A DNA stretch of 64,000 bases, from the sequence record PV933157.1; one strand, written 5' to 3'. Made by a program: the position numbers and the translations under genes. Source of the DNA: Escherichia phage 24-32N. Positions 51,029 to 52,745 of the stretch are shown here, piece after piece (position 1 is the stretch's first letter; each line of letters opens with the position of its first letter). The notes beneath the pieces are model-generated. The model saw only the letters and a list, made by a program, of their open reading frames with translations. It was not told where the DNA came from and did no database searches.

Positions 51029-51529
51029 CTATTCAAAAAGTTTACGGTCAGCCTGAATTTGTTTACCCAACTCAACTAGTTGGTTGTCACGGAGTCTAAC
51101 AGTTGCCCGGAGTTCTTCAACCAAACGTCTGCCTTCTTCAAGACTATTGTCGAGTCTGGCTGCATGGCTTGCAAGACTTCTGCACTCAAAGGCTCCGGCT
51201 TCGGCCTGACGTTGATATACCGATGCTCGTCTTTCAGACTGTTGCATCCGGCTGTCATAATCACTGCTAACGCGAGCAAGCTCGCTTGCGTAATTACTCT
51301 CAGCCGTCTGCAACCGGGAAGTGAGTAACCCGACTTCATAACTATGGTTTCTTTGGAGAGCATTGTATTTGTCCTGTAATTTTTGTGTTGCCTTAAGGTC
51401 TTCGACCTTTTGATCATCCCACTTCTTTTGAACAGTAGACTGTCCGTTGGAATTACCCCAAAAGTAAATGGTGGCCCCAAGGACCACCACCAGAAGATAA
51501 GGCCAACCTTTAGAGATTAGCATCTTCAT
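51029..51529 (-). CDS. Rz-like i-spanin
   Basis: N-terminal TM helix [13 protein letters not shown] then coiled-coil; start set at the Met at 51529 with GGAGG 6 nt upstream. Confidence 0.5.
51076..51363 (-). CDS. Rz1-like o-spanin (outer-membrane lipoprotein) embedded in the Rz gene in another frame
   Basis: Signal peptide with lipobox ...[12 protein letters not shown], Pro-rich mature part; AGGA upstream of the Met at 51363. Confidence 0.45.
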   Translation of the reverse strand: MLSKETIVMKSGYSLPGCRRLRVITQASLLALAVIMTAGCNSLKDEHRYINVRPKPEPLSAEVLQAMQPDSTIVLKKADVWLKNSGQLLDSVTTN

Positions 51530-52145
51530 TACATGCCTCCAGTGGCACATTGCCTATTCGGTTAGCTACCCAACCATACGTAAAGTCTGGCATGTTTAAT
51601 GAGGTGTAGTGGTTCAGTTGTTTGGCATCTAGTAACTTAATCATTACCTGACATGCTGCAACTTTGCCTCGTTTTTTCTGTAATGCTTTATATGCATTAA
51701 CAGTACCTGCACCGACTTTACCATCAACTTGTATTTTAGGGTAGTCTTTGCCATCACGGGACATTTCATTAAGAGATAACTGCAACCACTTAGCCGGACG
51801 AGATACACCAGTGTTAACACCAGCATCAACCAGTTTGTGTGTTATAGCAGGAGATATATCAGCGAAGGCTACGAAGTTAGGCTTAAGTACGTAGTCATCA
51901 ATGTATATCTCAGCAGCCATCTCTTTAGATAAACCCTTCATAGAACCATCCCAACCGTACTCAGTAGCCAGAACTTCTTTATGGGTCTTAGCTACTGATT
52001 GGGTAATACCATGATTAGTTTCCCCACCTGGGTCACGAGGATTGTTTACATACCCCCCCTCCATATAGAACACTGCCCCCAGAATAGCAGCGACAACTCC
52101 TCCCACTGCACCCCCTTTTGCAGCGAGTTTCTGTTTAGCTTTCAT
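51510..52145 (-). CDS. Endolysin: GH108-family N-acetylmuramidase with C-terminal peptidoglycan-binding region
   Basis: EGGYVNNPRDPGGETNHGIT matches the GH108 catalytic motif. Confidence 0.75.
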   Translation of the reverse strand: MKAKQKLAAKGGAVGGVVAAILGAVFYMEGGYVNNPRDPGGETNHGITQSVAKTHKEVLATEYGWDGSMKGLSKEMAAEIYIDDYVLKPNFVAFADISPAITHKLVDAGVNTGVSRPAKWLQLSLNEMSRDGKDYPKIQVDGKVGAGTVNAYKALQKKRGKVAACQVMIKLLDAKQLNHYTSLNMPDFTYGWVANRIGNVPLEACNEDANL

Positions 52146-52395
52146 GAGATTTTTCCTTCGGTTGGAATCGTACTAATCTGCCTACAATAATTAAAGCAAA
52201 CAGTGCGATTGTAATACTGGAGCCATGTGGAATATCTTCCAGGATGTGACGAGGTAGCCCCGTTAGCATTGGTTGGATAATATCTACAGCAGAAAATAGA
52301 ATTAACCCAAACGTACTAATCTGAACAGATGCCCATTTCCAGGACTTCTTCCAGTTAGGTACTAACTCAATCTTTCTTTTTAGCCTGCGAACCAT
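52135..52395 (-). CDS. Holin (two TM helices)
   Basis: Start set at the internal Met at 52395 with GGGAG upstream; TM segments WASVQISTFGLILFSAV and SSITIALFALIIVGRLV. Confidence 0.45.
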   Translation of the reverse strand: MVRRLKRKIELVPNWKKSWKWASVQISTFGLILFSAVDIIQPMLTGLPRHILEDIPHGSSITIALFALIIVGRLVRFQPKEKSHES

Positions 52396-52745
52396 GCGAA
52401 TATCTCCCGTCTTGCAGCAGCTAATACACCGATAATTGCACCTGCCCCAGCCCATACCCACTTACCGAAGATACCAGCACCAACCACTTTGTGCTTAATG
52501 GTAATAAACTCTTCAATAGTAGGTTCTGACTTAGCAAGGCTATCCTCTACGTTTTTAAGCCTGCCTTCCATTTGCTGAACAGACTCCTTCAAACCGGATA
52601 AGGTTTGTTCCAGTTTATCCTTAGAACGTTCCTCCTTTTCCTGGTTCTTAAATAGAGTTTCCAGTCTTTCCTCCAATCGGGCAAGAAGAACCGAAGTCGA
52701 TTCATCGCTCATAAGAAAGTCCTTATTGTTTGTAATAACACCCAT
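52380..52745 (-). CDS. Membrane protein with coiled-coil and C-terminal TM (holin/antiholin-like accessory)
   Basis: C-terminal hydrophobic GAGIFGKWVWAGAGAIIGVLAA; directly upstream of the holin. Confidence 0.4.
   Translation of the reverse strand: MGVITNNKDFLMSDESTSVLLARLEERLETLFKNQEKEERSKDKLEQTLSGLKESVQQMEGRLKNVEDSLAKSEPTIEEFITIKHKVVGAGIFGKWVWAGAGAIIGVLAAARREIFAWFAG

Follow-up and report, generated by a model that had tools for sequence, protein, structure and literature searches.

We studied 64,000 nucleotides (nt) of Escherichia phage 24-32N (PV933157.1), a stretch that we call the window and whose positions serve as coordinates throughout. On its minus strand, at 51029-52745, lie four overlapping genes and a fifth that is embedded in the last of them. 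A first-pass annotation made from the sequence had read this stretch as a lysis cassette, and the open reading frames (ORFs) that it named are all present, on the minus strand and in the leftward order it gave. The products, in that order, are homologs of gp63, gp62, gp61 and gp60 of phage N4, with gp60a inside gp60. The genes are tightly packed for translation and overlap by 16 nt (52380-52395), 11 nt (52135-52145) and 20 nt (51510-51529), as read from the sequence. Close relatives carry annotations with equivalent boundaries, for a Rz-like spanin (51029-51529), an endolysin (51510-52145), a holin (52135-52395) and a hypothetical protein (52380-52712), and the synteny is kept across the subfamilies Enquatrovirinae, Rothmandenesvirinae and Erskinevirinae.

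Hydropathy profiles give the following peaks: one at the C terminus of the gp63 homolog, two in the holin, one at the N terminus of the endolysin, one at the N terminus of the Rz-like protein and one before the cysteine of the embedded ORF. An NCBIfam search found no family for the spanins or the holins and only a sub-threshold match for the endolysin. Judging from sequence homology, we conclude with high confidence that this is a multigene lysis cassette of the genus Gamaleyavirus, co-linear and homologous with N4 gp63-gp62-gp61-gp60/gp60a, and that it probably encodes a pinholin/signal-anchor-release (SAR) endolysin system.

The holin pair

The first gene, at 52380-52712 on the minus strand, encodes a protein of 110 residues that is 67% identical to N4 gp63 over 109 of them and is predicted to be a C-terminally anchored pinholin. 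It has a long helix at its N terminus, a "LIN domain" that is conserved (PTIEEFITIKHK) and a transmembrane domain (TMD) rich in Gly and Ala, which gives its sole hydrophobic peak at residues 81-99. In an AlphaFold2 model, which like the others used here is a single-sequence model, helices span residues 3-61, 66-78 (over the LIN domain) and 91-109 (C-terminal, at low confidence). The protein matches phrog_5211, a PHROG of unknown function, with E=5e-50. No Pfam family scored above its cutoff; DUF1515 (PF07439) reached 19 bits against a cutoff of 22.2. In several records the homologous protein is labelled "tail length tape-measure protein," with Moo19 gp80 and IME11_3 among the inconsistent entries, and its annotation in IME11 is 12 codons short.

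N4 gp63 is a 110-residue, C-terminally anchored pinholin that sets the timing of lysis (Awuah et al., bioRxiv 10.1101/2025.11.12.688109). In complementation it substitutes for the S21 pinholin, though not for lambda S105, and it makes small lethal holes that release SAR endolysins and not soluble ones (10.1101/2025.11.12.688109). Rapid-lysis mutations cluster in its LIN domain: S62F, T65I, I70T/N, T71A and I72L (10.1101/2025.11.12.688109). All five of these residues (S62, T65, I70, T71 and I72) are kept in the window, and the LIN positions and the TMD are kept across 12 relatives. The TMD and the juxtamembrane segment are nearly identical between the window and N4.

The first-pass annotation had described this gene as encoding a membrane protein at 52380-52745. 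A membrane protein it is; the N4 gp63-type pinholin went unnamed, and the start given is probably too early. The full ORF has 121 codons for amino acids. Within it, ATG 52712 follows AAGGA by 7 nt and corresponds in alignment to Met1 of N4 gp63. The 33-nt in-frame extension from 52712 to 52745 has no Shine-Dalgarno sequence and is unconserved: N4 has a stop upstream of its start, and the distal ATG is absent from a Klebsiella phage, VLCpiP4a (Kaypoctavirus), whose protein is 94% identical. On these sequence grounds the start is most likely 52712 and not 52745. The same Klebsiella protein is far closer to that of the window than is the protein of G7C, which belongs to the window's own genus (66% identity; loci compared: window 52380-52712, L007 1122-1454 and L023 1318-1650). 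The adjacent gp62 of VLCpiP4a is 52% identical to that of the window. This pattern suggests that the N-terminal part of gp63 is exchanged mosaically between genera.

The second gene (52135-52395, minus strand) encodes an 86-residue homolog of N4 gp62 (58% identity), a two-TMD holin with a predicted N-in/C-in topology. It matches PF25612 (DUF7940) at 52.5 bits against a cutoff of 27, and phrog_1356 "holin" with E=4e-31. Its hydrophobic peaks lie at residues 22-40 and 59-77, following a strongly basic N terminus, MVRRLKRK. The overlapping holin pair proposed in the first-pass annotation is thus borne out by homology to N4 gp63/gp62.

Which member of the pair acts as the main holin has to be considered. 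In this genus the gp62 homolog could be the main holin and the gp63 homolog an antiholin or regulator. Databases call only the two-TMD protein a "holin," the tape-measure label and the lack of a Pfam family both attach to the gp63 homolog, and G7C-like phages reportedly do not show N4-style lysis inhibition, so that roles could have shifted. However, N4 gp63 complements a pinholin defect and sets timing while gp62 can be deleted (10.1101/2025.11.12.688109), and it is the membrane segment of gp63 that is almost unchanged from N4. N4 gp62 is a nonessential two-TMD holin with late triggering (10.1101/2025.11.12.688109). Gp62 appears dispensable among relatives as well, since in Pseudomonas phage inbricus the gp62 homolog is cut short by a stop after 44 codons (L008 1388-1522), Delftia phage RG-2014 has a gp63 homolog followed directly by the endolysin with no gp62 (L015 1337-2276), and Philippe, ZC03 and QDWS595 have other holins while retaining the endolysin and spanins. 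We consider a main holin role for the gp62 homolog quite improbable, and favor the gp63 homolog as the pinholin.

The holin ORF also extends upstream of 52395. In its longest form, 108 residues from GTG 52461, it includes an optional 22-codon N-terminal extension (52396-52461, minus strand, from GTG 52461 or ATG 52455) that shares its DNA, in another frame, with the codons of the gp63 TMD. This could be a dual start of the lambda S type, in which the long form (52461/52455) acts as antiholin and the short form (52395) as holin. In the window, N4, Klebsiella phage VLCpiP4a, inbricus and JWAlpha, the extension has a start codon and an open frame. N4 gp62, counted as 109 residues, has two candidate starts with Shine-Dalgarno sequences (10.1101/2025.11.12.688109). 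However, the extension is closed by a stop in four of eight relatives (Moo19, whose gp62 is 70% identical, Fifi287, Zuri and RiverRider), which is why 52461 is not favored as the start. It lies over highly conserved gp63 TMD codons and its openness can be a by-product; its sequence (GMGWGRCNYRCISCCKTGDIR) has no recognizable feature, and no clear Shine-Dalgarno sequence precedes 52461 or 52455. The dual start is possible but unconserved, and we judge it unlikely, with the long form a candidate only. The short form has the better-supported start: GGGAG at 52408-52404 lies 8 nt before ATG 52395, and GGAG followed by the equivalent ATG is kept in the relatives that possess gp62.

The endolysin, the i-spanin and the embedded o-spanin

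The third gene (51510-52145, minus strand) encodes a 211-residue homolog of N4 gp61 (70% identity), which we read as a SAR endolysin composed of a GH108 N-acetylmuramidase and a PG_binding_3 domain. The GH108 assignment made in the first pass holds, with PF05838 at 71.7 bits (cutoff, 21.2) and PF09374 at 30.8 bits (cutoff, 24.6); matches to PDB entries 6v3z (E=7e-27) and 6v40 (E=2e-20) were also found. The NCBIfam equivalog NF040573 scored 56.7 against a cutoff of 240, and we do not file the protein under it. Across 13 Schitoviridae the motifs E29-G-G-Y and D38-P-G-G are invariant or nearly so, and E29 itself is invariant.

The first-pass annotation missed the N-terminal anchor of this enzyme. 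A SAR domain is predicted from composition, hydropathy and conservation at residues ~7-28 (52062-52127, minus strand). Between K10 and E29 runs an uncharged 18-residue stretch, GGAVGGVVAAILGAVFYM, with 50% Gly plus Ala, equal to that of N4 gp61. The Kyte-Doolittle peak is 1.78, at residues 7-25. The domain is kept across the 13 relatives and directly abuts the invariant Glu of the EGGY motif. N4 gp61 is a SAR endolysin that works with a pinholin, and a G12E substitution in its SAR domain causes rapid lysis (10.1101/2025.11.12.688109). Cysteines C165 and C205 are invariant across the 13 Schitoviridae endolysins and may form a periplasmic disulfide. The work named as the source for N4 gp61 is reportedly that of Stojkovic and Rothman-Denes from 2007.

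The fourth gene (51029-51529, minus strand) encodes a 166-residue homolog of N4 gp60 (56% identity). It is predicted to be the i-spanin, a type II inner membrane protein with an all-helical periplasmic domain. It matches phrog_6197 with E=1e-77 and has an N-terminal hydrophobic peak at residues 3-21. The AlphaFold2 model is one long helix, residues 9-165, with a mean pLDDT of 89. GGAGG at 51540-51536 stands 6 nt before ATG 51529, and the longest-ORF start, 51550, is not favored over it. For both the holin (52395) and the Rz-like gene (51529), the upstream GGGAG and GGAGG and the annotation of relatives agree with the shorter internal starts preferred in the first pass.

Fully within the +1 frame of the i-spanin gene lies the fifth gene, at 51076-51339 on the minus strand. 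Compared with N4 gp60a, its product has 59% identity overall and 79% in the mature part. It is predicted to be the o-spanin, an outer membrane lipoprotein. The precursor has 87 residues, or 95 from an alternative ATG at 51363, and the mature part has 56. Read from ATG 51339, it carries the lipoprotein signal on which the first-pass annotation had staked its embedded Rz/Rz1 arrangement. By a rule in the style of PROSITE PS51257 there is a lysine at position 2, an uncharged h-region and M-T-A-G-C, with Cys at position 32. The Cys codon is at 51244-51246 (minus strand) and specifies residue +1 of the mature protein. In Lol sorting, Asp at +2 is the inner membrane retention signal. Residue +2 here is Asn, so the protein has no such signal.

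An open frame inside another gene can arise by chance, in which case only the i-spanin would be made. Alternative-frame ORFs of at least 87 residues that begin with ATG appeared in 937 of 20,000 shuffles of the Rz gene (~5%), ATG 51339 has no Shine-Dalgarno sequence, and most database records omit the frame. However, an ORF that also satisfies the lipoprotein rule occurred in only 22 of 20,000 codon-order shuffles (0.1%). When we searched with the 87-residue product by tblastn, the frame was found in 158 phage records, several of them with an o-spanin annotation; their hosts are Escherichia, Klebsiella, Shigella, Erwinia, Achromobacter, Pseudomonas, Stenotrophomonas, Burkholderia, Xanthomonas, Delftia and Alcaligenes. 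Among diverse Schitoviridae (12 loci plus N4 and the window), the frame, the lipobox Cys and a mature part of 54-63 residues are kept in 14 of 14, down to ~38-45% identity. The mature proteins of these 14 share YINVKPK.EPL plus a second, 23-residue segment. For most of the diverse relatives, similarity to the window is no lower in the embedded frame than in the i-spanin frame.

The pattern of substitution in the i-spanin frame points the same way. Among 13 distinct close sequences, the share of variable third-codon positions in gp60 is 0.25-0.26 inside the overlap against 0.56-0.60 outside it (Fisher p=6e-5). Suppression of wobble variability only within the overlap is what a second coding constraint would be expected to leave. 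The position of the ORF is also ordinary. It occupies offsets 190-454 of the 501 nt of the i-spanin gene, or 0.38-0.91 of its length (L), close to the 0.4-0.5 L to 0.9-1 L seen for ~70% of embedded spanins (Kongari et al., PMC6139136). Finally, N4 gp60a is itself an embedded gene for a lipoprotein with a 56-residue mature part, and gp60/gp60a complement lambda Rz/Rz1 amber mutants (10.1101/2025.11.12.688109). We conclude from the sequence that the embedded o-spanin frame is a real gene, and we hold a chance ORF to be extremely improbable. The embedded Rz/Rz1 arrangement of the first pass is upheld by N4 homology, by an o-spanin annotation in Bas96 at the equivalent of 51076-51339 (Bas96 also places Rz at 51029-51529 and the holin at 52135-52395) and by the conservation tests. 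Of the two outcomes that this annotation had named as refuting it, a missing lipoprotein signal in the embedded ORF and a frame not kept in relatives, neither was observed. The o-spanin is also annotated in G7C, St11Ph5 and ShWW44, and as a misc_feature in Mimir124. The Pro-rich mature part described in that annotation was overstated: there are 4 Pro in 56 residues, with a local RPKPEP cluster and no Pro run. Apart from the lipidated residue, the mature o-spanin has no Cys.

A 61-residue alternative-frame ORF in the endolysin gene (51644-51829, minus strand) has a hydrophobic N terminus and a lipobox-like LSGC, and was considered as a second embedded lipoprotein gene. Most close relatives have a stop within it, and the frame is closed in N4, Moo19 and the Klebsiella phage. 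We regard it as a chance ORF, and it serves as a negative control.

Where translation of the o-spanin begins is less clear. N4 and distant relatives have a short signal peptide, their ATG standing 15 codons ahead of the Cys (14 or 17 in Delftia phage RG-2014). In the clade that holds the window (Gamaleyavirus, Moo19 and the Klebsiella phage), the codon 15 before the Cys is ACG. Because the ancestral ATG has become ACG in this clade, the start is ambiguous between 51339 and 51363. ATG 51339 lies 31 codons ahead of the Cys; its counterpart in ECBP1 and a metagenomic relative (L026) is ACG, and the Klebsiella phage lacks it. The other candidate, ATG 51363, is 39 codons from the Cys; AGGA stands 8 nt ahead of it, and the whole clade shares it at 39-40 codons. 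A conserved TTG 11 codons before the Cys was also considered, but it would give an 11-residue signal peptide with no n-region and is implausible. The mature lipoprotein is identical whichever of the two ATGs is used.

Genomic setting and proposed course of lysis

Gamaleyavirus, a genus of N4-like podophages, belongs to the Enquatrovirinae within the Schitoviridae. As a whole, the window resembles most of an N4-like genome and includes an ORF of 3456 codons, the size of a virion RNA polymerase. The segment 50900-53100 is 97.1% identical in nucleotide sequence to Escherichia phage IME11 over its full length. Identity to the Gamaleyavirus phages (IME11, G7C, St11Ph5, Bas96, Mimir124 and others) is 93-97%, and 86 phage records match in all. 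Public annotation of the cassette is inconsistent. In OY979416.1 the region 23650-25586 is labelled as an RIIA/RIIB lysis inhibitor, and several close relatives have some of the cassette genes labelled "hypothetical."

All neighboring genes are on the minus strand as well. On the gene-upstream side of the cassette lies a tail-spike-like gene (53095-55455), and on the other flank a portal gene (48750-51020). Between the tail-spike-like gene and the cassette is a small ORF of 86 residues (52833-53093) with no Pfam or PHROG match. Mimir124 has a 261-nt hypothetical coding sequence (phrog_7836) at this position, and its megablast match ends near window position 52790. Directly upstream of the cassette and after the small ORF, folding identified an intrinsic-terminator-like hairpin with a U-rich tail at 52810-52831 on the minus strand (-15.5 kcal/mol, z=-4.3). 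It is followed, ahead of the cassette, by a conserved element, TATAAATAAGTATTAT, at 52770-52790. The hairpin and the AT-rich element are common to IME11 and the Klebsiella phage. Together they probably represent a terminator and a candidate late-promoter -10 region, with the promoter function inferred. A sigma-70 promoter scan found none on the minus strand upstream of the cassette, and the 52810-52831 hairpin escaped a terminator scan.

By homology to the tested N4 proteins, the following order of events may be proposed. The C-terminally anchored gp63 homolog would accumulate in the inner membrane, trigger as a pinholin and depolarize the membrane. With depolarization, the GH108 muramidase would come free of its N-terminal SAR anchor, which is weakly hydrophobic and has the catalytic Glu right after it; both the tethering, which is Sec-dependent in N4 gp61, and the release are carried over by analogy from that protein. 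The released muramidase would degrade peptidoglycan around the entire cell. The i-spanin and the o-spanin, freed from the murein mesh, would then disrupt the outer membrane, probably by membrane fusion, a role that we extend to them from N4 gp60/gp60a. The two-TMD gp62 homolog would act as an accessory, late-triggering holin.

Several points weigh against this reading. Every functional role is transferred from N4 at 56-70% identity. TMDs were taken from Kyte-Doolittle profiles and the lipoprotein signal from a rule-based test. The topology of gp63 is uncertain even in N4, and the predicted structure has low confidence over the gp63 TMD. The o-spanin start is unsettled, and neither candidate has a strong case. 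G7C, the type phage of Gamaleyavirus, is reported not to show lysis inhibition, whereas N4 does; the LIN residues are nevertheless conserved, and regulation may differ from that of N4.

The last two points could be more than difficulties. We entertain, tentatively, the idea that the o-spanin start shift and the conservation of the LIN residues despite the reported lack of lysis inhibition in G7C are meaningful departures from N4, and we think it somewhat less probable than its opposite. With the ancestral ATG replaced by ACG in Gamaleyavirus, Moovirus and Kaypoctavirus, initiation would occur 31-39 codons before the Cys or at a non-canonical codon. If so, the o-spanin would have an unusually long signal peptide, and its ratio to the i-spanin might be lower or differently coupled. 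The LIN segment would then belong to the gating core of this pinholin class, with the determinant of lysis inhibition elsewhere.

The cassette itself is already known, being annotated in relatives and having N4 counterparts that are experimentally characterized. It matters little beyond correct annotation and adds no new biology. Its use is practical: automatic annotation routinely overlooks embedded o-spanin genes and SAR domains, of which this case is a reminder, and the cassette is a clean positive control for the detection of overlapping genes. Two points are mildly new and offer minor leads for N4-type lysis regulation: in this clade the o-spanin start has shifted, and LIN conservation is complete in a genus whose type phage reportedly has no lysis inhibition.

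Comparison with known lysis systems

The spanin pair resembles lambda Rz/Rz1 in design. In both, the gene for the o-spanin, a small outer membrane lipoprotein, lies wholly inside that for the i-spanin and in its +1 frame; the i-spanin is an inner membrane protein of type II whose periplasmic domain is helical. N4 gp60/gp60a substitute functionally for lambda Rz/Rz1 (10.1101/2025.11.12.688109). There is, however, no detectable sequence similarity to the lambda family, and the closest Pfam match is a sub-threshold one to DUF2514. Lambda Rz1 has 10 Pro in 40 residues and a penta-proline stretch (PMC6139136), against 4 in 56 and no penta-proline in the o-spanin of the window. Lambda Rz1 uses Cys29 for an intermolecular disulfide; the o-spanin of the window has no second Cys, and the i-spanin has a single periplasmic one, C116. 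Spanin systems with one cysteine have been described by Kongari et al. (PMC6139136). By analogy, the o-spanin appears to work like Rz1 but stands outside the lambda Rz1 family.

The inner membrane stage resembles that of phage 21 with its S21/R21 pair, in which depolarization by a small-hole holin sets free a SAR endolysin tethered to the membrane. In the phage 21 background, N4 gp61 is functional (10.1101/2025.11.12.688109). The proteins are nonetheless unrelated. S21 has two TMDs, unlike gp63 with its one C-terminal TMD and long N-terminal helix, and R21 is of the lysozyme family whereas the enzyme of the window is a GH108 muramidase.

Among the closest systems are those of Gamaleyavirus itself and of N4. 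The cassettes of IME11, G7C, St11Ph5, Bas96 and Mimir124 have boundaries identical to those of the window, with minor substitutions and a mosaic N-terminal half of gp63. N4 differs in some respects. Met13 and Met17 of N4 gp63, the latter a proposed alternative start, are Leu in the window, and the N4 o-spanin has a 15-residue signal peptide against 31 or 39 residues from the upstream ATGs here. Otherwise the two cassettes are alike in gene order, in overlaps and in their position between tail genes and the portal gene, with identities of 67% (gp63), 58% (gp62), 70% (gp61), 56% (gp60) and 59% (gp60a). Both have a mature o-spanin of 56 residues, their SAR domains are equal in length and Gly/Ala content, and their LIN residues are identical.

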